A stretch of 64,000 bases of DNA, taken from assembly GCF_040219215.1 (NCBI RefSeq), contig NZ_JAVJSX010000024.1, positions 32,403-96,402 on the forward strand, written 5' to 3'. Below the pieces are notes generated by a model that was not told where the DNA came from, made no database searches, and saw only the letters and a list, made by a program, of their open reading frames with translations. This document shows, in pieces, positions 3,090-30,366 of this stretch. The position numbers and the translations under genes were made by a program. This DNA is from Thalassobaculum sp. (GTDB taxonomy: Bacteria > Pseudomonadota > Alphaproteobacteria > Thalassobaculales > Thalassobaculaceae). How positions within the stretch are numbered: the stretch's first letter is position 1; the number at the start of each line of letters is the position of its first letter.

Positions 3090-3265
3090 CGTGGATGTGA
3101 CGGAGCCGCCTCGGCCGTCGGCCAGTGATTACCCTTCTGTGGCCTGCCAAGACAGGTGGGTGCCGCAATGCCGAGACCACGGTCCCGACAGAGGCAGCTC
3201 CCTAGAAGGATGGTATCGCCCCAGGGGTAAATGCGACCTTAACGAACCGCGCAGCCCCGTCAGGT
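3090..3265 (-). ncRNA. ssrS: Putative 6S RNA
   Basis: About 200-nt gap between zapA and the cyclo-ligase with no plausible coding ORF, all on the same strand. This is the conserved zapA-ssrS-ygfA synteny. The gap ends are complementary (minus strand GACGGGGCUGC at 3251-3261 against GCGGCUCCGUC at 3099-3109). Boundaries are approximate and no covariance model was run. Confidence 0.5.
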
Positions 3266-3605: not shown

Positions 3606-3830
3606 TCAGTTCTCCAGCACGATTTCGAGCCGACCGATGGTGCTCTGCAAGCGGCTGTCGACCTCCGCCGCGGTCTTCGACAGCGCCGCGTAGTCGCGCT
3701 TGACCGCAAGGAGTTCGGCCTTCAGCGCGGCATCGCCGGCAGAGCCGTTGGCGCCGAGTCCATCGAGTGCCCGCTCCAGACGGGCCACCGCTTTGTCCAG
3801 CCTGTCCCGCGCCGTCGCCAATCGCGACAT
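3606..3830 (-). CDS. DUF4164-like small coiled-coil protein, commonly upstream of zapA in alphaproteobacteria
   Basis: 74-aa internal start of ORF 3606..4193: MSRLATARDRLDKAVARLERALDGL...RLQSTIGRLEIVLEN. Only 4 nt separate it from the zapA start. Confidence 0.65.
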   Translation of the reverse strand: MSRLATARDRLDKAVARLERALDGLGANGSAGDAALKAELLAVKRDYAALSKTAAEVDSRLQSTIGRLEIVLEN

Positions 3831-4056
3831 ATGGAATGCCCCTTTGTAATCGAGATCGCAACGAACCGAGGCCCCGCATTTCAAGGCATAAGCCCGCGAC
3901 CTTGAAGCGCCGCATGATACCGGCGGCAGGTCCCGCCCGTCAACGCAACGTGCAGACGCGACGGCCGCCTTGACGCGCAGCGCCTGCGTCGGCATGTTCC
4001 GCGCCATCAAGGCGCCGGCCGAGTCCGGCCCGCCCTCCGACCCCGCGACAAGCGCC

Positions 4057-6084
4057 ATGACAACTAAGCCCTCGGCCCGCGGAGCCGCTCTCGCCTCCGG
4101 CACCCACAAATCTCTTGCGAACGCGATCCGCGCGCTCGCGATGGACGCCGTGGAGGCTGCCAGCTCCGGCCATCCGGGCATGCCCATGGGCATGGCCGAT
4201 GCGGCCGTGGTGCTGTTTGCCGAGCAACTCCGTTTCGACCCCCGTCGCCCTGACTGGCCCGATCGCGACCGTTTCGTGCTGTCCGCCGGCCACGGTTCGA
4301 TGCTGCTGTACGCCTTGCTGCATCTGACCGGCTATCCGGGGATGACGATCGACGAGTTGAAGCGGTTCCGCCAGATCGGGTCCAAGACCGCCGGTCACCC
4401 CGAATACGGCGCCGCCCCCGGCATCGAAACCACGACCGGTCCGCTCGGGCAGGGTTTCGGCAACGGCGTCGGCATGGCGATCGCGGAGCGGCACCTGAAC
4501 GCCCGCTTCGGCGACGATCTGGTCAACCACCGCACCTGGGTGATCGCAGGCGATGGCTGCCTCATGGAAGGCATCAGCCACGAAGCCGCCTCGCTGGCCG
4601 GGCATCTCGGCCTCGGCCGTCTGAACGTTCTGTGGGACGACAACAGGATCTCGATCGACGGCCCGACCGACCTGACGCTATCGGACGACGTGCCGGCTCG
4701 CTTCGTGTCCTATGACTGGCATGTCGTGTCGGCGGACGGTCACGATCCGCAATCGATCTCGGCGGCACTTGCCGAGGCGGCCGCCGATCCTCGTCCATCG
4801 CTGATCGCCTGCCGGACGACCATCGGCTTCGGCGCACCGACCAAGGGCGGCACCGCCGGGAGCCACGGCGCACCGCTTGGCGCGGCCGAGATTGCGGCCA
4901 CCCGCGAGGCCATCGGCTGGCCGCACGCGCCGTTCGAGATCCCGAGCGACGTCCAGGCTGCAGGTCTTGCGCTGGGCGACCGCGGCGGCGTCGAGAACGA
5001 CGAGTGGCAGGGCCGGCTCGAGGCAGCCGATCCGGCGGTCCGCGCCGAGTTCGAGCGGGTGATGGCCGGTGAACTGCCGGCCGCGTTCTCCGACGCGGTC
5101 CATTCGCTGAAGGCGACCCTCGCCTCCGATCCGCCGAAGCTGGCCAGCCGGGTTGCCTCGCAGCGCGCAATCGAGGCGATCGCGCCAACCCTGCCGGAAC
5201 TCCTCGGCGGGTCCGCCGACCTGTCCGGGTCGAACAACACCAAGGTCAAGTCGCAGGCGATCATGACCCGCGACAACGCCAGCGGCAGCTACCTGCACTA
5301 CGGCGTGCGCGAGCATGCCATGGCCGCCGCCATGAACGGCATGGCGTTGCACGGCGGGGTGATTCCGTACGGCGGCACTTTCCTGGTGTTCACCGACTAC
5401 TGCCGGCCGTCGATCCGCCTGGCCGCCCTGATGGGGATCCGGGTGGTGTACGTGATGACCCACGACTCCATCGGCCTCGGCGAAGACGGCCCGACTCACC
5501 AGCCGGTCGAGCATTTGGCAGCCCTGCGCTGCATCCCCAACCTGCATGTGCACCGGCCGGCCGACGCGGTCGAGACCGCGGAGTGCTGGCAGGTCGCGCT
5601 GGAGCGGGTCGATGGCCCGTCGGTTCTGACGCTGACCCGCCAAGGTCTCCCGCCGGTCCGCACCACCCACTCCGGCGAAAACCGGGTACAGCGCGGCGGC
5701 TATGTGCTGATCGAGGCCGACGGCGCGCGTCAGGTCACGCTGATCGCCACCGGGTCCGAAGTCGACATCGCCCGGAAAGCGCGGGACCTGCTGGCAGCCG
5801 ACGGAATCGGCGCGGCTGTCGTCTCGATGCCGTGCAAGGAGTTGTTCGCGGTCCAGGACACCGCCTACCGGGATCAAGTCCTGGGGAATAGAACGGTTCG
5901 CGTCGCGGTCGAGGCCGGCGTGCGCATGCCGTGGGAAGCCGACATCGGACCGGACGGCGGCTTCGTCGGCATGTCCGATTTCGGTGCGTCCGGTCCCTAT
6001 GAGGAACTGTACAAGCACTTCGGGATTACGCCGGAGGCCGTGGCCGACGAAGCCCGCCGCCGGCTAGCCGCGCGGAAGACCTGA
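4057..6084 (+). CDS. tkt: Transketolase
   Basis: ATG at 4057 gives MTTKPS...[31 protein letters not shown].... TPP-binding [13 protein letters not shown] motif and full-length transketolase architecture. Confidence 0.95.
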
Positions 6085-8149: not shown

Positions 8150-8838
8150 GCGACCGCAACAACATGGGGCTGGGGACGCCCGATGAACGCGTCCCCACCC
8201 AGCTCTACCTGATCACCCCGCCACGGATCGACGACCTCGACGGCTTCGCCGACCGGTTGGCCGAAGCGCTTGATGCCGGCCCGGTCGCGTGCCTGCAGAT
8301 CCGCCTGAAGGACGTCGACGACGACACGGTCCGGCGGGCCACCGAGCGGCTGCTGCCGGTCGCCCACGAGCGCGGCGTGCCGGTGCTGATGAACGATAGC
8401 GCCAAGCTGGCGCTGGAGACCGGCTGCGACGGCGTCCACGTCGGCCAGGAGGACACCCCCTACGCCGAGGCGCGCCGTCTGCTCGGTGGCCGGGCGATGA
8501 TCGGCGTCACGTGCAAGGCCAGCCGGCATCTGGCGATGGCTGCCGCCGAGGCCGGCGCCGACTACGTCGCGTTCGGCGCGTTTTTCGAGACCGCCACCAA
8601 GCAGTCGGAGACCCGGGCCCCGCTGGAGATCCTGGAGTGGTGGCAGGACATCGCCCTGGTGCCCTGCGTCGCGATCGGCGGCATCACTCCGGACAACTGC
8701 GGCCCGCTGGTCGAGGCCGGCGCCGATTTCCTGGCGGTGGTCGGGGCGGTCTGGAACCGCCCGGATGGGCCGGGAGCCGCGGTCAAGGCCTTCGAGGCGG
8801 CGATAGCCCGCAGCATGGACTCCGCGCGTTCCGCCTGA
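8146..8838 (+). CDS. thiE: Thiamine-phosphate synthase
   Basis: GTG start overlaps the fba stop (GTGA). LYLITPP...LQIRLKD...GVHVGQED...GVTCK...ADYVAFGAFF...AIGGIT motifs are typical of ThiE. Confidence 0.85.
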   Translation: MSDRNNMGLGTPDERVPTQLYLITPPRIDDLDGFADRLAEALDAGPVACLQIRLKDVDDDTVRRATERLLPVAHERGVPVLMNDSAKLALETGCDGVHVGQEDTPYAEARRLLGGRAMIGVTCKASRHLAMAAAEAGADYVAFGAFFETATKQSETRAPLEILEWWQDIALVPCVAIGGITPDNCGPLVEAGADFLAVVGAVWNRPDGPGAAVKAFEAAIARSMDSARSA

Positions 8839-8889
8839 TACAAGCCCGCGCGTCCAAGAACACGTCAAATCAGTCACGGAATTCGGGCC

Positions 8890-9456
8890 ATGAAGATCAA
8901 CGGCAACGCGGTGCGCGTCGGCAACGTCGTCGAGCACCAGAACCGACTCTGGGTCGTCACCAAGACCCAGGCGGTGAAGCCCGGCAAGGGCGGCGCCTTC
9001 AATCAGGTCGAGATGAAGGACATCCGCAGCGGCACCAAGCTGAACGAGCGGTTCCGCGCCGACGCCCAGGTCGAACGGGTCCGACTGGAACAACGCCAGG
9101 CGACCTTCCTGTTCCGCGAAGGCGACATGCTGACCTTCATGGACAGCGAGACCTTTGAGCAGACGGTCGTGAACGCCGAACTGGTCGGCGATCCGGCAGC
9201 GTTCCTGCAGGACGGCATGGTCGTGCAGGTCGAGACCTACGAGGAAGAGCCGCTGTCCGTGGTGTTGCCTGATACCGTGGTGATGGAAGTCGTGGAAGCC
9301 GACGCGGTGGTCAAGGGCCAGACCGCGTCCAGTTCCTACAAGCCGGCCGTGCTTGAGAACGGCGTGCGCGTCATGGTGCCGCCGTTCATCGAGACCGGCA
9401 CCCGGATCGTCGTGAAGCCGGAAGACGCCAGCTACGTCGAGCGCGCCAAGGACTGA
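8890..9456 (+). CDS. efp: Elongation factor P
   Basis: 188 aa. ...[20 protein letters not shown]... is the conserved loop around the modified Lys/Arg position. Confidence 0.95.
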
Positions 9457-9530
9457 CGCGTCCCACCGGACGCACGCTGCCGGAGCCGCGCCAACCGGGC
9501 GCGCCCGACCTTACCCGCGGGAGATCGCCC

Positions 9531-10349
9531 ATGGCCGTCCGCTCGGCCCTGTACAACGTCGTCTTCAAGGCCTGCCAGAAGGCGTCGCGCAGTCTCAAGC
9601 GCGACTTCGGCGAGGACGAGAACCTGCAGGTCTCCAAGAAAGGTCCGGTCGACTTCGTGTCGACCGCCGACCATCAGGCCGAGCGCATCCTGAAGGAGGA
9701 GCTCAGCCGGGCGCGCCCGGATTTCGGGCTGCTGATGGAGGAGTCGGGTACGGTCAAGGCCGCCGATGACCTGGGCCGCCGATGGATCGTCGATCCGCTG
9801 GACGGCACACTGAACTTCCTGCACGGCATTCCGCACTTCGCGATCTCGGTGGCAGCCGAGGAGCGCGGCGAGATCGTGGCTGGCGCCGTCTACCAGCCGC
9901 TCACCGACGAATTCTTCTGGGCCGAGAAGGGCGCGGGTGCATTCCTGAACGACCGCCGCCTACGGGTCTCCGGTCGGCGCAGCCTGCAGGAAGCTGTGTT
10001 CGCCACCGGCATCCCGGTGACCGGGCTCGGCGGCGACCATGACCAGTTCATCGCCTACCAGCGTGCCGTCATGGAGAACACCGCCGGCGTCCGCCGGTTC
10101 GGCGCCGCGGCGCTCGACCTCGCCTGGGTCGCGGCCGGGCGGTTCGACGGCTTCTGGGAGATGAAGCTGAAGCCCTGGGACATAGCGGCCGGCCTGCTGC
10201 TGGTCCGTGAGGCCGGAGGCTATGTCACCGACTATGCCGGCCGCTCCAACGTCCTCGAATCGGGCGATGTGGTGGCAGCAAACGATCAGCTGCACGGCCC
10301 GATGCTGAAACTGCTGAAGAACGCGAAACCGAAGGCCGGCGCGGCCTGA
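9531..10349 (+). CDS. Inositol monophosphatase family protein (SuhB-like)
   Basis: 272 aa. WIVDPLDGTLNFLHGIP and AAALDLAWVAAGRFDGFWE motifs. Confidence 0.9.
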   Translation: MAVRSALYNVVFKACQKASRSLKRDFGEDENLQVSKKGPVDFVSTADHQAERILKEELSRARPDFGLLMEESGTVKAADDLGRRWIVDPLDGTLNFLHGIPHFAISVAAEERGEIVAGAVYQPLTDEFFWAEKGAGAFLNDRRLRVSGRRSLQEAVFATGIPVTGLGGDHDQFIAYQRAVMENTAGVRRFGAAALDLAWVAAGRFDGFWEMKLKPWDIAAGLLLVREAGGYVTDYAGRSNVLESGDVVAANDQLHGPMLKLLKNAKPKAGAA

Positions 10350-10437
10350 GGGCCTGTCCTCCCGGGTACCCCGGCGCTCGGTGTTGTCGAGGCGGGCGCC
10401 TCTGGTATAACCATCCGTCGAACGACGACCGGGAGGG

Positions 10438-11526
10438 ATGATGAGGGGACCATGCGCGCTCGCCGGCATAGCGTTCGGTGCGGCAGTGGCTCTGGCGACT
10501 GGCTTCGCGTCGGCCCAGGTGCCCTATCAAATCGGCGACAACCGGGGCAGCGTCTCGGTTGATCTTGGTGTCATGGAGAGCCTCGGTCCGACTCCGACGG
10601 TTCCGCAGATGCTTCGTCCCGGCACACCGGTCGGCCAGTTCGGTTACGATTCACGTGCGGGCACCCTGGCATCCGTCGACCCGTCTACCGGCATGCGCGC
10701 GCATAGCGGCCGTCTCGGCAGCGCGCCGCCCCCGCTGGGTGTCGACGCGGCACCGGCTCCCGACTGGTTGCGCCGACCCGACGCCCCGCAGTACGCACCC
10801 TTGCCCGACACCCTGCAGAATCGTTCGACCGCCCCGAGTACCCGCGGTCCGGCCCCGACCCTGAAACCGCCCAGCGCCGCCCGCTCGGCGACGCCCGCTC
10901 CGAGCGTGCCGGAGCCGAAGGCCGCACCGCCGCGCACTGCGGCGCCGAGCGTTCCACCGGCGGCCGCGGTGCCCACGCCGACCCCGCCGAAGCCGCCGGC
11001 GCCGGCCGCGTCATCGACCCCCGCTAGCCAGACGCCGCCGCCCGCAAAGGCTCCGGAGGCACCCAAGGCTCCGCCCGTACCGAAGATTCCGTCGACGGCA
11101 TCGGCACCGGTGGCCGCACCATCGCCCGCAAAGACCGAACCACCGAGCCAAGTCGCCGCGGCGACGCCCGGACCGGCTTCTACGCCGCCGGCACCGTCCG
11201 CTCAGGGCACACCCGGCGATGTGGTCCGAGTTCCGTTCAATTCGGGTCAGTCAACGTTGCCGGATGACGCAAAGGATGGGCTCGATTCACTGGCCGGCCG
11301 CCTGCGGAAGGACGAGACGCTGCGGATCCAACTGCTTGCCTACGCTGATGGCGACGAAGACAACGCCAACAAGGCGCGCCGTCTGTCGCTGTCGCGGGCG
11401 TTGGCGGTCCGGGCCTATCTGATCGACAAGCAGGTCCAGAGCACCAGGATGGACGTGCGGGCGCTTGGCAATCGTGCGAAGGATTCCCCCAAGGACCGCG
11501 TAGACGTTGTGCTGGTAAGCCGCTGA
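10438..11526 (+). CDS. OmpA-family protein with a signal peptide and a long Pro/Ala-rich linker
   Basis: N-terminal signal-like MMRGPCALAGIAFGAAVALATGFASAQ, about 200 aa of P/A/S/T low complexity, then a C-terminal OmpA-like domain (...LLAYADGDEDNANKARRLSLSRALAVRAYL...). Confidence 0.8.
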   Translation: MMRGPCALAGIAFGAAVALATGFASAQVPYQIGDNRGSVSVDLGVMESLGPTPTVPQMLRPGTPVGQFGYDSRAGTLASVDPSTGMRAHSGRLGSAPPPLGVDAAPAPDWLRRPDAPQYAPLPDTLQNRSTAPSTRGPAPTLKPPSAARSATPAPSVPEPKAAPPRTAAPSVPPAAAVPTPTPPKPPAPAASSTPASQTPPPAKAPEAPKAPPVPKIPSTASAPVAAPSPAKTEPPSQVAAATPGPASTPPAPSAQGTPGDVVRVPFNSGQSTLPDDAKDGLDSLAGRLRKDETLRIQLLAYADGDEDNANKARRLSLSRALAVRAYLIDKQVQSTRMDVRALGNRAKDSPKDRVDVVLVSR

Positions 11527-23258: not shown

Positions 23259-24330
23259 GAGCGGGACCCAGATGAATCCGGTCTTGGTCCAGCGTTCAAC
23301 AAACGCCGATTAACCGCAACGGTCCTTTTGGGGTTGTCATTTGCTGATGTAGCGTCGACACGGCACGACATGCTCGGACAGTTTGGGATTGGCCAGACAG
23401 AAACTGACTATGTGATAATCACAGTTCAGACAGTTATTTCTGCTCCCCCGAAACGCAGGTCGACTTTATCGGCCCGCTCCGAAGCGTGCATTAGAACGGG
23501 ATCTCGTCGTCAAGAGACGCCGGCTCTTGTGGCGAGGGCAATGGTTCGTGAGTACGAGGCGGCATCAGTTGCCGGACTTCATGGTTTTCGATCATTCGAC
23601 TCGCCGCGTCTCGATCTTGCTCTTCTTTAGCTTGGCCAACTGTCTCTTCAATCTTGTTAACCAGCTCACGAACTGCACTTGCGGCTCCACCGACATCTGC
23701 AATGGCACCTGCGACTGCAAGTGTGACCACGCCCACCGCAATGAATGTTAAATTGCGGGAATCAAGATCACTCTCGAATTTGTCAACTTGCCTGATGAGT
23801 TTATCGATTCGAGCTGGCGGCAAATTGAGTTTACGAACTTCTTCACGAAGATGAATTGTGAGCGTCCGAAGTCGATCGCGTGTCGCTCCTTCTAAAAATA
23901 TCGCTGTTCGGAGTTTGCGATCTGCTCCTTCCAACATAAGTTGCATCGTATAAAAGCTGAGGTCAGACACAAAATCATCAAAAGCGTGATCGTTCCAATT
24001 GCTTCGACGAGGCATTTCGATGTTGGAAATAGGTACAATATTCAAATATTTTGCCGCAGAAACCACTGAAGTCATATAACGCAGTCGAGCATCTTGAACA
24101 ACACCCCACTCTTCTTCATTACTGATTTGCTCATAGTACCGTTTTCGACAAATTTGCTCTATCTGGACAAATCGCTCCCGTGGATTCTCCGGTAGATCTT
24201 CTATTTCTTCCTGTGTGATAAGCAAATCCATAGAAATGCCTCCGCCAAGCGATCCGCTGAAATTACCACACAGTAGGTCTTTGAAAACCTTTTACCACCA
24301 AAACGGAGTGCCGGTGGTGGTATGCTGCCC
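23259..24330. other. AT-richer single-gene islet between two GC-rich core genes
   Basis: Composition shifts abruptly after the GNAT stop (23258) and returns at the SDR stop (24331). Codons of the enclosed gene mostly end in A/T, unlike its neighbours. No tRNA, integrase or clear direct repeats were seen. Confidence 0.6.
23491..24231 (-). CDS. Orphan hypothetical protein: helical N-domain, glycine-zipper-like hydrophobic segment, Pro-rich linker and an SSB-like C-terminal tip (LDDEIPF)
   Basis: 246-aa uninterrupted ORF in the AT-rich islet. It ends ...MPPRTHEPLPSPQEPASLDDEIPF*. Hydrophobic segment LTFIAVGVVTLAVAGAIADVGGAASAV spans residues 161-187. No family recognised. Confidence 0.75.
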   Translation of the reverse strand: MDLLITQEEIEDLPENPRERFVQIEQICRKRYYEQISNEEEWGVVQDARLRYMTSVVSAAKYLNIVPISNIEMPRRSNWNDHAFDDFVSDLSFYTMQLMLEGADRKLRTAIFLEGATRDRLRTLTIHLREEVRKLNLPPARIDKLIRQVDKFESDLDSRNLTFIAVGVVTLAVAGAIADVGGAASAVRELVNKIEETVGQAKEEQDRDAASRMIENHEVRQLMPPRTHEPLPSPQEPASLDDEIPF

Positions 24331-25116
24331 CTACTCCTTCGGCATCACCTGGCTGAGCGCCAGCCTGCCGCCGTCGGGGTAGATGGTCTGGCCGGTGAAG
24401 TAGGCGCTGTCGTCGGTGGCGAGGAACAGCGCCGCGCCGGCGATCTCCGACGGTTCGGCCGGGCGGCCGAGCGGGGTGCGGCTGCGGACCCGGTCCATCG
24501 CCTCCGGGTCGGTCAGCATCGCCGAACGGAACAGGTCGGTCGCCACGCTGCCGGGACCGATGGCGTTGACCCGAATGCCGTGGCGCGCCAGTTCCACCGC
24601 CATGGTCTTGGTCAACTGGTTCACCCCGCCCTTCGACGCGTTATAGGCGGCCAGGCCCAGCGGCACGATCACCGCGTTGACCGAGGCGGTGTTCACGATG
24701 ATGCCGCGGATCCCGCGGTCGACCATCCGCCGGGCCGCCTCCTGGCCGGTGTAGAACACCCCCTTCAGGTTGACCGCGATCACCCGGTCGAAGGTGGCGT
24801 CGTCCAATTCCAGGAACGGCGTGTTGTGGATGATGCCGGCGTTCGCCACCACCACGTCGAGCGAACCATAGGCCTCGATCGCTCGATCCATCAGGGACGC
24901 CACCTGCTGGCGGCTGGTGACATCGCAGGCGACGAACCGCGCCTCGTTGCCGGCCGCGCGGATCCGGCCGACGGTCTCGTCGCCGGCCAGCGGGTCCATG
25001 TCGGCGGCCACCACCTTGGCCCCCTCGGCGGCGAACCGCTCGGCAATGGCGGCACCGATTCCCCGTGCGGCCCCGGTAACGACGGCGACCTTGCCCTGCA
25101 GGCGCATGCTCTTCAT
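24331..25116 (-). CDS. SDR family oxidoreductase
   Basis: ATG at 25116 overlaps the upstream stop (ATGA). MKSMRLQGKVAVVTGAARGIGAAIA...NAGI...YNASKGG (TGxxxGxG, NAG and YxxxK motifs). Confidence 0.9.
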   Translation of the reverse strand: MKSMRLQGKVAVVTGAARGIGAAIAERFAAEGAKVVAADMDPLAGDETVGRIRAAGNEARFVACDVTSRQQVASLMDRAIEAYGSLDVVVANAGIIHNTPFLELDDATFDRVIAVNLKGVFYTGQEAARRMVDRGIRGIIVNTASVNAVIVPLGLAAYNASKGGVNQLTKTMAVELARHGIRVNAIGPGSVATDLFRSAMLTDPEAMDRVRSRTPLGRPAEPSEIAGAALFLATDDSAYFTGQTIYPDGGRLALSQVMPKE

Positions 25117-27011
25117 CCCTTCTGCGGATAGCCGACGGTCTGCAGCGACTGGGCGATCTCGCCCAGGATCGCCGGGTCGTCGATGGTTGCCGGGGCGGCC
25201 ACGTCCTGGCCGTCGGCGATCTTCTGCATGGTGCGGCGCAGGATCTTGCCCGAGCGGGTCTTCGGCAGGCGCTGGACCACCGTCGCCACCTTGAACGCGG
25301 CGACCGGACCGATACGCTCGCGCACCATCGTCACCACCTCGGCCACGATCTGCTCGTGCGGCTTGTTGACCCCGTCCTTCAGCACCAGGAAGCCGAGCGG
25401 CACCTGGCCCTTGAGCGCGTCGGCCACCCCGATCACCGCGCATTCCGCGACGTCCGGGTGGTTGGCCAGCACCTCCTCCATCCCGCCGGTCGACAGCCGG
25501 TGTCCGGCGACGTTGATGATGTCGTCGGTGCGGGTCATGACGTGCAGGTAGCCGTCGTCGTCGATCACCCCGGCATCGCCGGTCTGGTAGAAACCGGGAT
25601 ACTCGGTCATGTAGCTGGTCACGAACCGGTCGTCGTTGTTCCACAAGGTCGACAGGGCGCCCGGCGGCAGCGGCAGCTTGATCGAGATGGCGCCGATCTC
25701 GTTGGGCTTCACCGCCGAACCGTCGGGTGCCAGCACCTGGACGTCCCAGCCCGGCACCGGATGGGTCGGCGAGCCCGGCTTGTACGGCAGTTCCTCGATG
25801 CCCAGGCAGTTGGAGACGATCGGCCAGCCGGTCTCGGTCTGCCACCAGTGGTCGACGGTCGGAACCTTCAACTTGTCCTGGCACCACTTCAGGGTGTCGG
25901 GATCGCAGCGCTCGCCGGCCAGGAACTGGGCCTTGAAGTTCGACATGTCGTACTTGGCCAGCAGCTTGCCGTCCGGATCCTCCTTCTTGATGGCGCGGAT
26001 CGCGGTCGGCGCGGTGAACATCACCTTGACCTTGTGGTCGGCGATCACCCGCCAGAACGCACCTGCATCCGGCGTACCGACCGGCTTGCCCTCGTACAGC
26101 ACGGTGGTGCAGCCATGGAACAGCGGCGCGTAGACGATGTAGGAATGACCGACCACCCAGCCGACGTCGGACGCCGCCCAGTACACGTCGCCGGGGTCGA
26201 CGTCGTAGATGTTCTTCATCGACCACTTCAGCGCGACCAGGTGGCCGCCGGTCGGTCGCACCACGCCCTTCGGCTGACCGGTGGTGCCGGAGGTGTACAG
26301 GATGTAGGCCGGATCGGTCGCCTTGACCGGCACGCAGCCGGCAGGCGGGGCAGCAGCTTCCGCGTCCTCCCACAGCACATCGCGGCCCGGCGCAAGCTCG
26401 GCTTCGACCTGCGGGCGCTGCTTGATCACGCAATGCTGCGGCTTGTGGGCCGCCAGTTCGATCGCCCGGTCGAGCAGCGGCTTGTAGGCCAGCACCCGCT
26501 GGCCCTCGACTCCGCAGGACGCCGACACGATGACCTTCGGCGTGGCATCGTCGATCCGGGTCGCCAGTTCCTTGGCGGCAAACCCGCCGAACACCACGGA
26601 ATGCACGGCACCGATCCGCACGGTCGCCAGCATCGCCACCAGCGCCTCGGGAATCATCGGCATGTACAGGATCACCCGGTCGCCGTAACCGACGCCGAGC
26701 CCGCGCAGGGCGCCGGCGAACCGGGCGATCCGCTCCTGCATCTCGCGGTAGGTGTAGGTGGCGACCGTGCCGGTGACCGGGCTGTCGTGGATCAGCGCCG
26801 GCTGCTCGCCACGCCCCGCCTCCACATGGCGGTCGATCGCGTTGTAGCAGGTGTTGGTCTCGCCGCCGACGAACCAGCGCGAGAACGGCGGACGGGAGTC
26901 GTCGACGACCTGGTCCCAACGTCTGGTCCAGGCCACGTCCTCCGCGGCCTCGGCCCAGAACGCCGTCGGATCCGCCATAGAGCGGCGGTAGACCTCGTGG
27001 AAACGGCCCAT
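25113..27011 (-). CDS. prpE: Propionate--CoA ligase / acetyl-CoA synthetase family
   Basis: 632 aa. ...PAYILYTSGTTGQPKGVV... AMP-binding motif, ...YYQTGD..., and a length and N-terminus (FWAEAAEDVAW...) typical of PrpE/Acs. Substrate assignment is tentative. Confidence 0.8.
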   Translation of the reverse strand: MGRFHEVYRRSMADPTAFWAEAAEDVAWTRRWDQVVDDSRPPFSRWFVGGETNTCYNAIDRHVEAGRGEQPALIHDSPVTGTVATYTYREMQERIARFAGALRGLGVGYGDRVILYMPMIPEALVAMLATVRIGAVHSVVFGGFAAKELATRIDDATPKVIVSASCGVEGQRVLAYKPLLDRAIELAAHKPQHCVIKQRPQVEAELAPGRDVLWEDAEAAAPPAGCVPVKATDPAYILYTSGTTGQPKGVVRPTGGHLVALKWSMKNIYDVDPGDVYWAASDVGWVVGHSYIVYAPLFHGCTTVLYEGKPVGTPDAGAFWRVIADHKVKVMFTAPTAIRAIKKEDPDGKLLAKYDMSNFKAQFLAGERCDPDTLKWCQDKLKVPTVDHWWQTETGWPIVSNCLGIEELPYKPGSPTHPVPGWDVQVLAPDGSAVKPNEIGAISIKLPLPPGALSTLWNNDDRFVTSYMTEYPGFYQTGDAGVIDDDGYLHVMTRTDDIINVAGHRLSTGGMEEVLANHPDVAECAVIGVADALKGQVPLGFLVLKDGVNKPHEQIVAEVVTMVRERIGPVAAFKVATVVQRLPKTRSGKILRRTMQKIADGQDVAAPATIDDPAILGEIAQSLQTVGYPQKG

Positions 27012-27654
27012 GTTTCCTCCCCTGTTCTCGTCGCGGCCTTAACACGACCACGATCCTCATTGGTCCGATCCTGATGGAGTCCGGGCCAGATGTCAGCAGG
27101 GTGGCGAGCCGGCAAGAGTGCCGATCACATCCGGATCGGCTTGCCGAGGTCGATGCGGTTCCTGTTCATGAAGGGTCAGATCCGCCTTCCGGTCGTCGGT
27201 CGGAGCGCTTGTCACGTTGGGGGTGGCGCAGCGGCTATATACATGGAGCGTGCCCGCGGCGCCCTCAAGGGAGCCGAAGGCAAACGTCTGACCTATCGAC
27301 GGACTGGTCTCGGGGCATAACAGCAGCGGGCGAATCACAGATCAAAAGTTAAAAAAAACTGGTCGAGTCGCTCTTACGCTGGGACCACCATCGCGAGCAG
27401 CGACGCAAGCGATAGTGGCTCTGCGCCTTCGTGTGAGGAAGATTTAGATTAAATGCTTGACGACAGTACGGCAAATCCGCCGAATCGTAAGATTGACCAA
27501 AGCGGACACCGGGGCCTGCCAGCCCCGGGCCGCCGGTTCCTAAACGGTCGGCCGTCCGGGAACATGCTCTTGAGAAGCGACAGTGACTTTCTATTGAGTC
27601 GCAAGCAAAGTCAATTGGACGGCCCAGTTTCAAGCCCATGAAAGGGTTAGTCAC

Positions 27655-27924
27655 ATGGCAGTCTATTTAATCACCTACGACCTGAATAACGAGACCGTGC
27701 GCCCGAAGATCGTCAAGGACATTAAGGCGTATGACAACTGGGCGTGCCTGTCCGAATCGTCATATGCCGTTGTCTCCGACGGGACGCCCGAAGCCGTCTA
27801 CAACTACCTGTCCAAGCATCTCGACGGTGACGACACTCTCTATGTGATCAGCCTTCGGCGACCGTATTCCGGGCAAGGCTCGAAGGCTGTGAACGACTGG
27901 CTCGACACCAACCTTCAGTGGTGA
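27655..27924 (+). CDS. Orphan Cas2-like small protein (ferredoxin-fold pattern), function unknown
   Basis: 89 aa, MAVYLITYDLNNETVRPKIVKDIKAYDNWACLSESSYAVVSDGTPEAVYNYLSKHLDGDDTLYVISL.... The beta-alpha-beta-beta-alpha-beta pattern and the N-terminal YxxxYD(I/L/V) strand with Asp9 resemble Cas2. G/C-ending codons support coding. Confidence 0.6.
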   Translation: MAVYLITYDLNNETVRPKIVKDIKAYDNWACLSESSYAVVSDGTPEAVYNYLSKHLDGDDTLYVISLRRPYSGQGSKAVNDWLDTNLQW

Positions 27925-28082
27925 ACCGCACCGAAGCCTGCGCCGTCAATCGGCGCCTCACCTCGGCAACCTGACCCGACGTGTCGGGCTGGAGCACAAG
28001 GCGATCATCCTCAAGCGCAACGCGCATTGTGGCGGTCCCGGATGAGATCGCTAAGCCTCGGTCAGCGCAAGCTGGCCGAGGT

Positions 28083-28229
28083 CTACTTTTCGCGACGCTC
28101 CTGGACCTTCGGAGGATGCTTTGGTTCTTCGTCCTTATGCGGCTTCAGCGTGGTCCGCAACAGGTTTCTGCCCACCTTCTTGAACCGAGGATCGTCCTCG
28201 GCCCGCTTGTCGTCCTTGGAGTCAGTCAT
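28083..28229 (-). CDS. Hypothetical 48-aa highly charged peptide
   Basis: MTDSKDDKRAEDDPRFKKVGRNLLRTTLKPHKDEEPKHPPKVQERREK. Strong G/C third-position bias, whereas the same-region plus-frame extension is Ser/Arg junk. Its ATG (28229-28227) overlaps the HEPN-like ATG (28228-28230) within CATG. Confidence 0.4.
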   Translation of the reverse strand: MTDSKDDKRAEDDPRFKKVGRNLLRTTLKPHKDEEPKHPPKVQERREK

Positions 28230-28761
28230 GAACGGGCGAATCCCCGGTGACGTTGTTGAAGCTCTATGCGGCGCTGTCGGCCATGTGGTCGTAAACTGGG
28301 CGTTTGTTGAGGTCGCAGTGGATACATGCATTGCGACGATCTACCAAAACGCCGGGGGCAAACACATAGAACGAGAGATCCCAAGCGCTATCGGTCGCAA
28401 GGTCAAATTTCTTCGTCGGTGCATCAAGCAGATCGGCGCGCTGTCACTATATCGCACGGAAGGCGACCAACTGCTCAATAGAGTGAACGCTGTGAAGGAC
28501 ACGCGGCACATGCTCGTGCACGGATGCGTCACCGGCTACGAGCGAGAAAATCACGCATTCACGTTTGCCAAGATGGACACCATCAACAACCGGACCCGGC
28601 ACAAACTCAATCCATCAAAGTTTACCGCACAGCAGATTCTCGATGACGGAACCGAGTGTCAGACCTTGGCCCGCGACCTGACTCGCTTCAGCCAACGCCT
28701 GTTCGAGGCTTTCCCTAGTGAGGATGAATTGAACAACGGCCCTAGCACCATCGGAGGCTAG
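28228..28761 (+). CDS. Hypothetical protein with a HEPN-like R-x4-H motif (candidate HEPN ribonuclease)
   Basis: 177 aa from the ATG at 28228 (GGAG at 28218-28221). It is predicted helical with ...LLNRVNAVKDTRHMLVHGCV..., where R93-x4-H98-G matches the HEPN signature R[NHD]xxxH(G). The upstream 67 codons of ORF 28027..28761 look non-coding. Confidence 0.6.
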   Translation: MNGRIPGDVVEALCGAVGHVVVNWAFVEVAVDTCIATIYQNAGGKHIEREIPSAIGRKVKFLRRCIKQIGALSLYRTEGDQLLNRVNAVKDTRHMLVHGCVTGYERENHAFTFAKMDTINNRTRHKLNPSKFTAQQILDDGTECQTLARDLTRFSQRLFEAFPSEDELNNGPSTIGG

Positions 28762-28928
28762 TGCGTCGCTCAATTTCCATTGTTCAGGGTCGACGCAACG
28801 TCCCGTTCAAGTGTTGCTAGTACACGGATTTGTCGGTCTAACCGAATCTTGAAAACTCTCTTTGTTCATTACAGAGATTCCGATGGCGCGAAATCAAGCG
28901 CCCTCTGGCGCTGCTTCACGCCAACGCC

Positions 28929-29123
28929 CTAGTCATGGCGACAAAAGAACCCCTTAACGGAATCGCGACGGTACATCAGCGTCGGGATCGAGATCTCGTC
29001 AGTCTCTTCTTTTGCATCAGGTTCAAAATTGCTTTGACTGATTTGCGCCGCGCTCGCCGGGACCGGGCCGCCGGTCAGCAGGAAGGGTGCGAAAGCCAGG
29101 AACGAGAGAGGTTTCTTCAGCAT
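28929..29123 (-). CDS. Possible small secreted protein
   Basis: 64 aa from the internal ATG: MLKKPLSFLAFAPFLLTGGPVPASA|AQISQSNFEPDAKEETDE.... Signal-peptide-like N-terminus with an ASA cleavage motif. Weak support otherwise. Confidence 0.35.
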   Translation of the reverse strand: MLKKPLSFLAFAPFLLTGGPVPASAAQISQSNFEPDAKEETDEISIPTLMYRRDSVKGFFCRHD

Positions 29124-29544
29124 GGGAGCGCTCCTCGATTTGAACCGTCGCAGCATGCGCTGCGCGCACGTGTCACTCTTCAGATGGCGCTCTTTTTATC
29201 GGTAATTTCGAAACATTTTCTTTCCAATCAATATTAAAAATTTGTAAAATTGGCTTATTGCAAGTTTAGAGTGTCGCTCTTCAAATCGACCGCGTAGTCG
29301 AGACACAGAATTGATGGCCGATTTCGGTCGCGTCGGTTGATGGTGCGAAAGCCGGATCGACACGCTTCGCCAGATGCCCGGTCGACCACCGGCACGGCCG
29401 CCGGTCAGATGATCGTGCGCAACGCGACGCCGCCGCTCTGATATGCGGAAAGCCACTTCAAGGCAGTCCTGGTCTGGCCCTCGTATCGGCCCCGGGTGAT
29501 GGTGCGCGGGTGGTTTCTCCGCCCTTAACGGTGAAGCGACAGCC

Positions 29545-30366
29545 TCACACCAGCGCGAATACCCGGGCCGGTCCGCCGGAGCCGCCGCGATGTTTCGGCG
29601 CCCCGACGACCAGGGTCGCACCCTTGGCCGGCACCTTGTCCAGGTTGGCGATGCACTCGACACCCCAGCGGTTGCTCGGCAGCCAAGCGTAGTGCGTCGC
29701 AAAGTCCCCGGACTGCCCGAAGTCGAGCGACAGCGTGTCGACCGCCATGCCGACCGCCGAGCTTTCCTCCATCAGCATCTTGGTGGCCTCGGGGTGGAAG
29801 CCCGGGAAGTGCATCTTCTTGTCGGCGCCGACGTTGCGGAACTTGTCGGTGGCAGCATGCTTGTCCCAGCCAGAGTTCATGGCGACGCAGCACTTGTCCG
29901 GCAGCGGGCCGTTCGAGGCGATCCAGGCCTTGATGTCCTCCGGCGTCACCTGGGCGTCGGGGTCGGCGGATGCCTTGGCCCGGATGTCGACCACCGCGAG
30001 CGGCACCACGAGGTTCGCCACCGGGATCTCGGCGACGCTCTGGCCGTCCTTCGAGAAGTGCAGCGGCGCGTCGACATGGGTTCCGGTGTGCTCGTTCACC
30101 GTGATGACGCTGAGGTTGAAGCCGTTCTTGTCGAAGCTGAACTTCTCTTCGGTCGCGAACTGCGATTCACCGAAATAGGTCGGAAACGCCGGATGCAGCT
30201 CATGGGTCATGTCCTCGACCTGGCCCGTCCCGGCAGCCAGGGCGGGCGACGCCCCCGCGGCGGTCCCGACGGCCGCGGCGGCAGCTCCGGCCGCAGTGAC
30301 CTTGAAGATGTCGCGCCGGCTGAGCATGCGGCGCTTGACGGATTCGACGACACAGTGATGGCACAT
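29545..30366 (-). CDS. Cyclase family protein (kynurenine formamidase-like, PF04199-type) with a twin-arginine signal
   Basis: ...MLSRRDIFKVTAAGAAAAAVGTAAGASPALA (Tat motif SRRDIFK). HTGTHVDAPLHF metal-binding motif of putative cyclases. The start is probably the ATG at 30327. Confidence 0.85.
   Translation of the reverse strand: MCHHCVVESVKRRMLSRRDIFKVTAAGAAAAAVGTAAGASPALAAGTGQVEDMTHELHPAFPTYFGESQFATEEKFSFDKNGFNLSVITVNEHTGTHVDAPLHFSKDGQSVAEIPVANLVVPLAVVDIRAKASADPDAQVTPEDIKAWIASNGPLPDKCCVAMNSGWDKHAATDKFRNVGADKKMHFPGFHPEATKMLMEESSAVGMAVDTLSLDFGQSGDFATHYAWLPSNRWGVECIANLDKVPAKGATLVVGAPKHRGGSGGPARVFALV

Follow-up and report, generated by a model that had tools for sequence, protein, structure and literature searches.

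Within a 64,000-nucleotide stretch of a Thalassobaculum sp. genome (contig NZ_JAVJSX010000024.1; hereafter the window), we identified a solitary gene of the Cas2 superfamily as the passenger of an insertion sequence (IS) of the IS1595 family, left in the window as stranded but maintained cargo. Profile searches place the encoded protein of 89 amino acids (aa) in phrog_1090, a large, catalogued and uncharacterised family of phages and other mobile genetic elements, and not among rarities. It is not an orphaned Cas2 of a CRISPR system and is unconnected to any CRISPR locus. Overall, we consider it rather likely that this stranded IS1595 cargo is a solitary phrog_1090 member of the Cas2/VapD superfamily, probably dealing with nucleic acids in mobile-element conflict.

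Solitary Cas2/VapD proteins on mobile elements were already known from work of 2012–2013. Makarova et al. (2012) reported Cas2 homologues without antitoxins on selfish elements, beside resolvases or relaxases, and suggested a role in addiction (PMC3506569), Anantharaman et al. (2013) found Cas2-like proteins in integron cassettes (PMC3710099), and Koonin and Makarova (2019) foresaw the discovery of a transposon (casposon) arrangement that includes a Cas2 homologue (PMC6452270). The nearest characterised relative is BPSL1038 of Burkholderia pseudomallei (PDB 7VXR/7VXT), described by Shaibullah et al. (2023) as a stand-alone protein of a 'Cas2/VapD nuclease sub-family' (PMC10491678). As a Cas2-like gene that a selfish element carries next to a DNA-mobilising enzyme, without an antitoxin, the gene of the window resembles the cases of 2012 and 2013, but differs from those resolvase- or relaxase-linked genes and integron cassettes in its carrier, an IS1595-family DDE transposon, and in its family, phrog_1090. 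The stranded-cargo context, the swappable cargo slot described below and the phrog_1090 membership are what the present analysis adds. In the literature outside subscription journals, we found no paper linking Cas2-like genes to IS1595 cargo, nor orphan, solo or stand-alone Cas2 as terms. The apparent 'orphan Cas2' represents a large, uncharacterised and CRISPR-independent Cas2/VapD branch on phages, plasmids and transposons, for which intact IS1595 elements of 2.5–3.5 kb, with defined ends and carrying the gene, provide a concrete and testable setting.

The IS1595-family carrier and its intact counterparts

An earlier note on this region, made from the sequence of the window, had described the Cas2-like gene as solitary and as the first gene of a small foreign module. 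Solitude and foreign origin were borne out, the gene lying in a low-GC island (Table 1) flanked by host genes for an acyl/acetyl-CoA synthetase-like protein (25113-27011, minus strand) and a cyclase-like protein (29545-30366, minus strand); GC at third codon positions (GC3) is 0.75-0.93 in host genes. The module itself had to be reinterpreted as the remnant of an IS1595-family transposon, and the Cas2-like gene is not its first gene, being preceded by a transposase relic.

Table 1. Features of the low-GC island, in window coordinates (ORF, open reading frame; HMM, hidden Markov model; L001, locus of the closest relative)
Feature	Position	Strand	Basis or remark
Low-GC foreign island	27200-29400		GC ~0.45-0.60 vs ~0.67 in flanks
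IS1595-family transposase relic, last 25 codons and stop	27243-27320	+	tblastn, HMM
Non-coding spacer upstream of the Cas2-like gene, 334 nt	27321-27654	+	Identity to L001
Solitary Cas2-superfamily gene (phrog_1090 family)	27655-27924	+	ATG start, 89 aa
GC-rich hairpin (12 bp) separating the Cas2-like gene from the convergent small ORF	28055-28082		Conserved in L001
Small ORF, 48 aa, highly charged, convergent with the Cas2-like gene	28083-28229	-	HMM matches
177-aa helical protein with invariant R-x4-H	28228-28761	+	29 relatives, second cargo module

The relic was recognised by comparison with related loci (numbered L001 and so on), above all L001, the metagenomic locus holding the closest relative of the Cas2-like gene. 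Residues 280-304 of the L001 transposase, which bears the Pfam domains Zn_ribbon_IS1595 and DDE_Tnp_IS1595, match the relic by tblastn with 23 of 25 residues identical, and a transposase HMM retrieves it at 2.1e-5. When neighbouring ORFs were compared all against all, the 76-aa ORF at 27090-27320 clustered with the full-length IS1595-family transposases of L001, L017 and L028, located in all three loci directly upstream of the Cas2-like gene. At the DNA level, homology with L001 starts abruptly at position 27241, and window positions 27241-28218 are 82% identical to L001 3929-4917 over 990 nt, on both sides of the Cas2-like gene. A comparison of the island DNA with that of L017, L056, L058 and L028 showed similarity only in the Cas2-like gene and in the tail of the transposase. 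The remainder of the transposase gene and the left inverted repeat (IR) are gone, the sole stretch resembling a left IR being internal (27444-27466). Because no pair of terminal IRs was found in the window, we regard its copy as an immobile relic, unlike intact IS1595-family IS in having neither full transposase, nor recognisable ends, nor 8-bp duplication.

The Cas2-like gene itself is maintained under purifying selection, with a ratio of non-synonymous to synonymous substitution rates (dN/dS) of 0.17, with dS at 0.70, against its L001 homologue of 80% aa identity. The spacer upstream is 81% identical to that of L001, compared with a synonymous-site difference of 46% in the adjacent gene, and folds better than all 100 shuffled versions (z = -2.8). 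It presumably holds the promoter and the 5' untranslated region; no Rfam family was detected in it, and an alignment of the upstream spacers of nine elements revealed no motif shared beyond the window/L001 pair. Downstream of the gene, the terminator-like hairpin, conserved in L001, likely serves as a bidirectional terminator.

Intact relatives of the carrier were recovered from several loci. In L017, from a Hoeflea metagenome-assembled genome, 24-nt IRs (CCTAATTATATACTTGACGTACCA) bound a 2,503-bp element (8699-11201) with an 8-bp target-site duplication (TSD, ATTATTTT), and in L028, from Mesorhizobium sp. AaZ16, a 3,521-bp element (TSD TTTGGTCT) lies between perfect 25-nt repeats (GGCGATTATATATTTGACAAACCCA). 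Each of the two encloses a transposase with Zn_ribbon_IS1595 and DDE_Tnp_IS1595 domains together with a Cas2-like gene, which demonstrates that this gene is the cargo of a mobile unit. In addition, L001 presents a matching left end, L036 has its transposase 1.5 kb upstream of the Cas2-like gene, and L037 an IS1595-type right repeat ~140 nt past it. The transposase is intact in L001, L017, L028, L036, L056 and L058, and IS1595 transposases constitute the commonest neighbouring Pfam family of the Cas2-like gene. With their Zn-ribbon and DDE_Tnp_IS1595 transposase, their IRs and their 8-bp duplications, these intact relatives resemble IS1595-family IS with passengers.

Two further intact IS1595 elements with the L017-type IR, in Chelativorans salis (L056, 8-bp TSD AATTTAGT) and in a phage-like contig (L058 3391-5818, TSD GGCCCGGT), carry the transposase, the small ORF and a gene of the 177-aa family, without a Cas2-like gene. 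L017 and L056 align over the transposase, the small ORF, the 177-aa gene and both ends, but not over the slot between transposase and small ORF, which is occupied by the Cas2-like gene in L017 and, in L056, by an unrelated sequence of 425 nt that lacks any convincing ORF. The best description of these data is an IS lineage with two cargo positions, namely a swappable slot, which sometimes holds the Cas2-like gene, and a module made of the small ORF and a variable protein. Such a cargo set (Cas2-like gene, small ORF, R-x4-H protein, DUF1828, DUF3800 or suppressor tRNA) was not described in the papers searched. In the L058 slot, ARAGORN predicted a 90-nt suppressor tRNA (4731-4820, minus strand) with anticodon tta, reading UAA. 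The L058 element sits between terminase and NusG/HNH genes of its phage-like contig, and phage terminase genes lie directly beside three cargo-carrying elements (L036 6712-8566, L056 5979-7743 and L058 2208-3309), which suggests that this IS lineage frequently resides in prophages.

Fold, family and habitat of the Cas2-like protein

The ORF reported by the earlier note was recovered with the same coordinates, strand, ATG start and sequence (MAVYLITYDL...), and an identical protein is on record as 'hypothetical protein [Thalassobaculum sp.]'. An AlphaFold2 (AF2) model built on seven relatives, with a predicted local distance difference test score (pLDDT) of 88.1 and a predicted template-modelling score (pTM) of 0.78, places strands at residues 2-9, 29-33, 36-41 and 61-67 and helices at residues 13-24, 45-53 and 77-86. 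Every secondary-structure element that the note had named coincides with this model (from strand 2-9 to strand 61-67), to which the model adds the C-terminal helix 77-86.

The Cas2-type fold claimed at that time was supported both by the topology of the model and by its closest structural matches, which placed the protein with Cas2 and not in an unrelated family. Against the PDB, Foldseek retrieved Cas2 structures (1zpw, 3exc, 5h1o, 2i0x, 4es1-3, 2ivy, 7f84, 4qr0 and 7mid/7mi4) with probability 1.00 at ranks 1, 2 and 4-14, and 14 of the first 21 matches, all of probability 1.00, were Cas2 structures. Rank 3 was taken by BPSL1038 (7vxr_B), the best full-length match (template-modelling (TM) scores 0.76/0.78 over 89 columns). 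At the sequence level, the protein matches the Cas2 family PF09827 with an E-value of 0.033 over residues 3-68 and the PADLOC models Cas2_II, Cas2 and Cas2d with E-values from 3.5e-4 (Cas2_II) to 1e-3. Among 123 relatives scanned individually, 35 match PF09827 at E<=0.01 (best 3.3e-7), and no other Pfam family recurs among them. The sequence signal for Cas2 likeness is thus weak but consistent, and the structural signal of the predicted fold is clear. Nanobody matches obtained in profile searches of PDB sequences were discarded as false positives, and a search of the viral structures of BFVD with the Cas2-like model returned no match at E<=1e-3.

With CRISPR-associated Cas2 (PF09827), the protein shares a predicted ferredoxin-like fold, a weak profile similarity over nearly its full length and a Tyr-Asp pair at the end of the first strand, aligned with the catalytic or metal-binding Asp. 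As the earlier note had proposed, Asp9 holds this position: it aligns with the Tyr-Asp of 3exc and 4es1. The protein differs from CRISPR-associated Cas2 by its C-terminus, where the predicted helix at residues 77-86 replaces the Cas1-binding beta5 strand or tail, the C-terminal strand of Cas2 being known to mediate the formation of the Cas1-Cas2 complex (PMC10491678). It also differs in never adjoining cas1 or an array in the loci examined. In the model, D9 ends the first strand and E34-S35-S36-Y37 form the turn between beta2 and beta3. Across the 123 relatives, D9 is an Asp in 80%, and conservation reaches 84% for S35, 93% for Y37, 87% for D60, 92% for G73, 97% for W82 and 92% for L83.

Similarities to BPSL1038 extend further. 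This protein comes from an organism without CRISPR, cleaves double-stranded DNA as a divalent-ion-independent endonuclease, and displays an acidic pocket made of D11 and of the S32-S33-T34 turn between beta2 and beta3 (PMC10491678). Both proteins measure ~88-89 aa, are net acidic (by direct residue count for the protein of the window), and are solitary in genomes or regions without CRISPR; they share the same predicted topology, including the extra C-terminal helix, and an Asp at the end of beta1 followed by a Ser-Ser-x turn (D11...SST in BPSL1038, D9...SSY here). D9 and the residues of the Ser turn fit the geometry that Cas2-DNA complexes and BPSL1038 are described to have. The two families are nevertheless distinct in sequence. 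Structurally aligned residues are only 11-12% identical, and the D11(X20)SST motif of BPSL1038 is absent, 25 residues leading here from D9 to S35 and a Tyr standing for the Thr. Furthermore, BPSL1038 is reported from seven genera, mostly Burkholderia (PMC10491678), whereas phrog_1090 is found in several phyla, with mobile elements as its carriers. As to VapD, whose fold has extra helices in the beta1-alpha1 and alpha2-beta4 loops (PMC10491678), the AF2 model lacks both insertions.

The family proved to be large. An exhaustive HMMER search of 1.84 billion cluster representatives (clusters at 50% identity) yielded 1,684 representatives at E<=1e-3, that is at least 1,684 clusters, of which 296 reached E<=1e-10, nearly all of 85-95 aa. 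This overturned a first impression of extreme rarity, given by a word-index search that had returned 7 relatives. The phrog_1090 profile matches the protein at E 1.2e-16, residues 1-87 aligning with profile positions 1-88 of 90, and all 123 relatives tested belong to this family.

Searching annotated collections by tblastn, we found the family on mobile DNA. It is present in 41 plasmid records, among them ColE1-type plasmids of 4.8-5.1 kb from Klebsiella, Enterobacter and Citrobacter, a plasmid of Rahnella, megaplasmids of Acinetobacter, and replicons of Photobacterium and Isosphaeraceae. Temperate phages carry it as well (Bacillus phage phi4B1, Staphylococcus phages StB20-like and phiSP44-1). 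In the two phages that were inspected, the gene is solitary within the lysogeny-control region; it points in the direction of the repressor and integrase genes and against that of the early lytic genes. The 16 genomic and 19 metagenomic loci gathered, from Alpha- and Gammaproteobacteria, Bacteroidales, Bacillota and Actinomycetota, were collected with a 7-sequence alignment, which biased them towards proteins starting MA[VT]Y[LI][IV]TYD.

Outside IS1595 elements, the gene is accompanied by a changing set of defence-type genes, including TIR_2/ThsB, PIN_8 and AAA_21/AriA, as well as AbiLi, BstA, PD-T4-2, NsnA and methyltransferases according to PADLOC; on the small enterobacterial plasmids, it lies beside an AAA_21/AriA-like ATPase. 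DUF3800 and DUF1828 also number among the neighbours of the family. No partner was common to more than a few loci. Three Pseudomonas loci (L011 800-2095, L018 9746-11041 and L019 9746-11071) share a cassette in which an 81-aa protein with the internal repeat A-x-A-L-A-x-S-x-L-S-Q-S is followed after 10 bp by the Cas2-like gene and, 25 bp further, by the gene of a 249-aa TIR_2/ThsB-like protein, possibly as a three-gene unit. On the Rahnella plasmid pHW114B (L053, 3053-5929), the Cas2-like gene (3806-4078) runs into the start of a PIN_8 gene, which is annotated as two pieces (4051-4527 and 4484-5929) and contains a 96-nt coding tandem repeat in its C-terminal part; a 220-aa protein encoded upstream shows faint Abi_2 and RiboL-PSP-HEPN matches.

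Possible functions

By analogy with Cas2 and BPSL1038, the protein would form a homodimer through its beta-sheet, uniting Asp9 and the Ser35-Ser36 turn of both subunits in an acidic pocket that could bind, and probably cut, nucleic acid. Since the C-terminal strand that holds Cas1 is missing, participation in an adaptation complex is not expected. Judging from its habitat, the protein would most likely serve the mobile element against its host or competing elements, through exclusion, defence or addiction, given the repeated occurrence of the family next to abortive-infection-type genes on phages, small plasmids and IS elements. If true, a role in conflicts between element and host, be it exclusion, addiction or interference with adaptation, would add to the picture of Cas2-like proteins circulating on mobile DNA and would matter for the proposal that the Cas1-Cas2 module arose from mobile elements.

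Several observations weigh against this interpretation. The PF09827 score of the protein, 14.8 bits, is below the gathering threshold of 23.8 bits; the 123-member profile reaches the Cas2 sequences of the PDB only at E-values of 0.12-1.2, and it did not retrieve 7vxr (BPSL1038) among PDB sequences at E<=10. D9 is swapped for E, N, Q, S, T or Y in ~20% of the members, for which reason catalysis may not be the conserved function of the family, and nucleic-acid binding rather than catalysis may be its common denominator. Regarding the carrier, an IS1595 transposase or relic was found at only 5 of the 33 distinct loci with at least 1.5 kb of upstream sequence, so that carriage by IS represents one habitat among several, and no right IR was found in the window, which leaves the right-hand extent of the relic uncertain. 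Finally, residence in the same variable islands, rather than a common function, could explain the defence-like neighbourhood.

Among the other explanations considered, a VapD-like toxin of a toxin-antitoxin pair stabilising the mobile element, with the small ORF or another neighbour as antitoxin, is in our view unlikely. Cas2 is placed in the VapD interferase family, and solitary homologues on mobile elements have been proposed to foster addiction (PMC3506569, PMC6452270), which agrees with the presence of the gene on small plasmids and IS elements and with the small charged ORF adjoining it in the window, L001 and L017. This ORF, however, tracks with the 177-aa, DUF1828 or DUF3800 protein and not with the Cas2-like gene, and it occurs in L056, L058, L013 and L015, all devoid of the latter. 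No antitoxin gene was found conserved beside the Cas2-like gene across 44 distinct loci, the phages and most loci showing no conserved partner at all, and no VapD structure appeared among the top 50 Foldseek matches. BPSL1038, structurally the closest protein, is reported to be non-toxic to nematodes and weakly cytotoxic (PMC10491678). We give still less credit to an anti-CRISPR decoy, in which a Cas2 mimic, retaining the dimerisation core without the C-terminal strand for Cas1, would disrupt the Cas2 dimers of the host or the assembly of Cas1-Cas2 and thereby shield phages, plasmids and IS from spacer acquisition. The carriers are exactly the elements targeted by CRISPR adaptation, the orientation shared with repressor and integrase in two temperate phages suggests expression in the lysogen, and a helix takes the place of the C-terminal Cas1-binding strand, all of which would suit a decoy, but the scenario is entirely inferential and very unlikely: CRISPR-Cas genes were seen near no copy, and the family keeps a signature of its own (Y37, G73, W82 and L83, each above 90%) across Proteobacteria, Bacillota, Bacteroidota and Planctomycetota, where mimicry of highly divergent host Cas2 proteins predicts otherwise.

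Hardly any chance is left to an accessory factor of IS1595 transposition, for instance a dimer that would bend or bridge DNA in analogy to the Cas2 of the Cas1-Cas2 integrase. The sister elements L056 and L058, with the same IR, the same transposase and intact TSDs, do without the Cas2-like gene, the slot of L058 holding a tRNA instead; the IS1595 transposase is lacking at 28 of 33 loci, and phages and ColE1-type plasmids carry the gene as well. This stands against its co-orientation with the transposase, its location within the IRs of L017 and L028, its adjacency to the transposase in L001 and L017, and the parallel drawn by Makarova et al. between Cas2-like genes beside DNA-cleaving enzymes and Cas1-Cas2 (PMC3506569). 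As for a degenerate leftover of a decayed CRISPR-Cas adaptation module, that is a true orphan cas2, it is effectively refuted. The absence of CRISPR arrays and cas genes from the window, as stated by the earlier note, held in all scans: no repeat-spacer array was detected (the single match being a 2-copy chance repeat), no CRISPR RNA family of Rfam, and no cas profile of PADLOC among the 60 predicted proteins, nor was any CRISPR-like array found in 59 related sequences (~550 kb). One candidate repeat chain, in L053, turned out to be the coding tandem repeat inside the plasmid PIN_8 gene. A large family of uniform length with its own profile, a C-terminus unlike that of CRISPR Cas2 and IS-derived flanks equally oppose a leftover, in whose favour stand the weak similarity to Cas2 profiles and the annotation of some phage copies as 'CRISPR-associated endonuclease Cas2'. 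Such genes should not be labelled 'CRISPR-associated Cas2', as they are in some phage records.

Beyond the role in mobile-element conflict that we favour, a bolder and quite unlikely extension would make phrog_1090 a Cas2-derived weapon of mobile elements, either a dominant-negative Cas2 mimic blocking spacer acquisition or a one-protein exclusion nuclease, spread between chromosomes and phages by an IS1595 lineage whose plug-in slot (Cas2-like gene, suppressor tRNA or empty) adjoins a module of small ORF and R-x4-H protein. If true, this lineage would be a natural transposon with a Cas2 homologue, an arrangement that the forerunner of the CRISPR adaptation module has been expected to show (PMC6452270).

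Companion cargo and other features of the window

The small ORF downstream of the Cas2-like gene is, by its sequence conservation, real at the protein level: its HMM finds counterparts in L001, L017, L013, L015, L056 and L058, with the motif L-x-x-x-L-x-T-P-P-K-P, and its dN/dS against L001 is 0.43. The motif of the window ORF itself reads L-x-x-x-L-x-T-(P/L)-K-P-H-K. In the window its partner is the 177-aa protein; elsewhere it is associated with a DUF1828 protein (L001), a DUF3800 protein (L036) or an unannotated 320-aa protein (L028). From start codons that overlap, the small ORF and the mid-size gene diverge, sharing CATG in the window (28227-28230) and in L017 (10471-10474), and divergent starts also overlap in L056 (5001-5007) and L036 (5585-5616). 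This unusual arrangement, conserved across elements at only ~24% protein identity, implies that the promoter and ribosome-binding site of each gene lie inside the coding sequence of the other.

The 177-aa protein itself has no Pfam, NCBIfam or PADLOC match. A profile search enlarged its family to 29 members, mostly from Rhizobiales, none of them with a Pfam domain. Both hhalign (probability 97%, E 6.6e-11) and a jackhmmer search started with only the window protein support the L017 relative, of 24% identity, which occupies the same position, with the same start-overlapping small ORF. The label of HEPN-like protein given by the earlier note is unconfirmed and rests only on its R-x4-H motif, whose R93 and H98 are indeed invariant in the five aligned members, including the L017 protein, and no HEPN profile or significant fold match came in addition. 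The AF2 model (pLDDT 82) predicts long helices with a three-strand insert; Foldseek found nothing significant (best E 0.2), AbiV HEPN scoring a probability of 0.08 and a TM of 0.15-0.17, and the family profile matched no PDB sequence.

The same note had pointed to a pairing of the Cas2-like and HEPN-like genes, the co-occurrence of which was examined. With close homologues, tblastn first indicated that the two genes never occur together, a result overturned by the remote relative of the 177-aa protein in L017. The pairing therefore recurs in an intact element, but an obligate two-gene system does not hold, as each gene is found without the other. Because the 177-aa gene occurs without the Cas2-like gene in L056 and L058, and a 177-aa relative is present at only 2 of 44 distinct Cas2-like loci (the window and L017), the pair of small ORF and 177-aa gene is a cargo module separable from the Cas2-like gene, and their association is real but facultative.

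The remainder of the island (28762-29400) shows no homology to any fetched locus and no right IR. It contains a 75-aa ORF (28929-29156, minus strand) with a signal-peptide-like N-terminus and an AT-rich stretch (~29190-29260) that holds the only sigma-70-like match. A second foreign islet, 3.4 kb from the Cas2-like gene, consists of a 246-aa ORF (23491-24231, minus strand; GC3 0.40) without Pfam, NCBIfam or PADLOC match. Among the 60 window proteins, one or two match the PADLOC models of ZorA/ZorB (MotA/ExbB/TolQ and MotB) with E-values from 1e-7 to 1e-20; the matching proteins probably belong to the housekeeping stator or Tol type and not to Zorya, and none of ten candidate ORFs tested was their source. 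Finally, a 6S RNA (RF00013, 62 bits, E 6.5e-10) is encoded at 3099-3260 on the minus strand, the sole Rfam family above threshold in the window.

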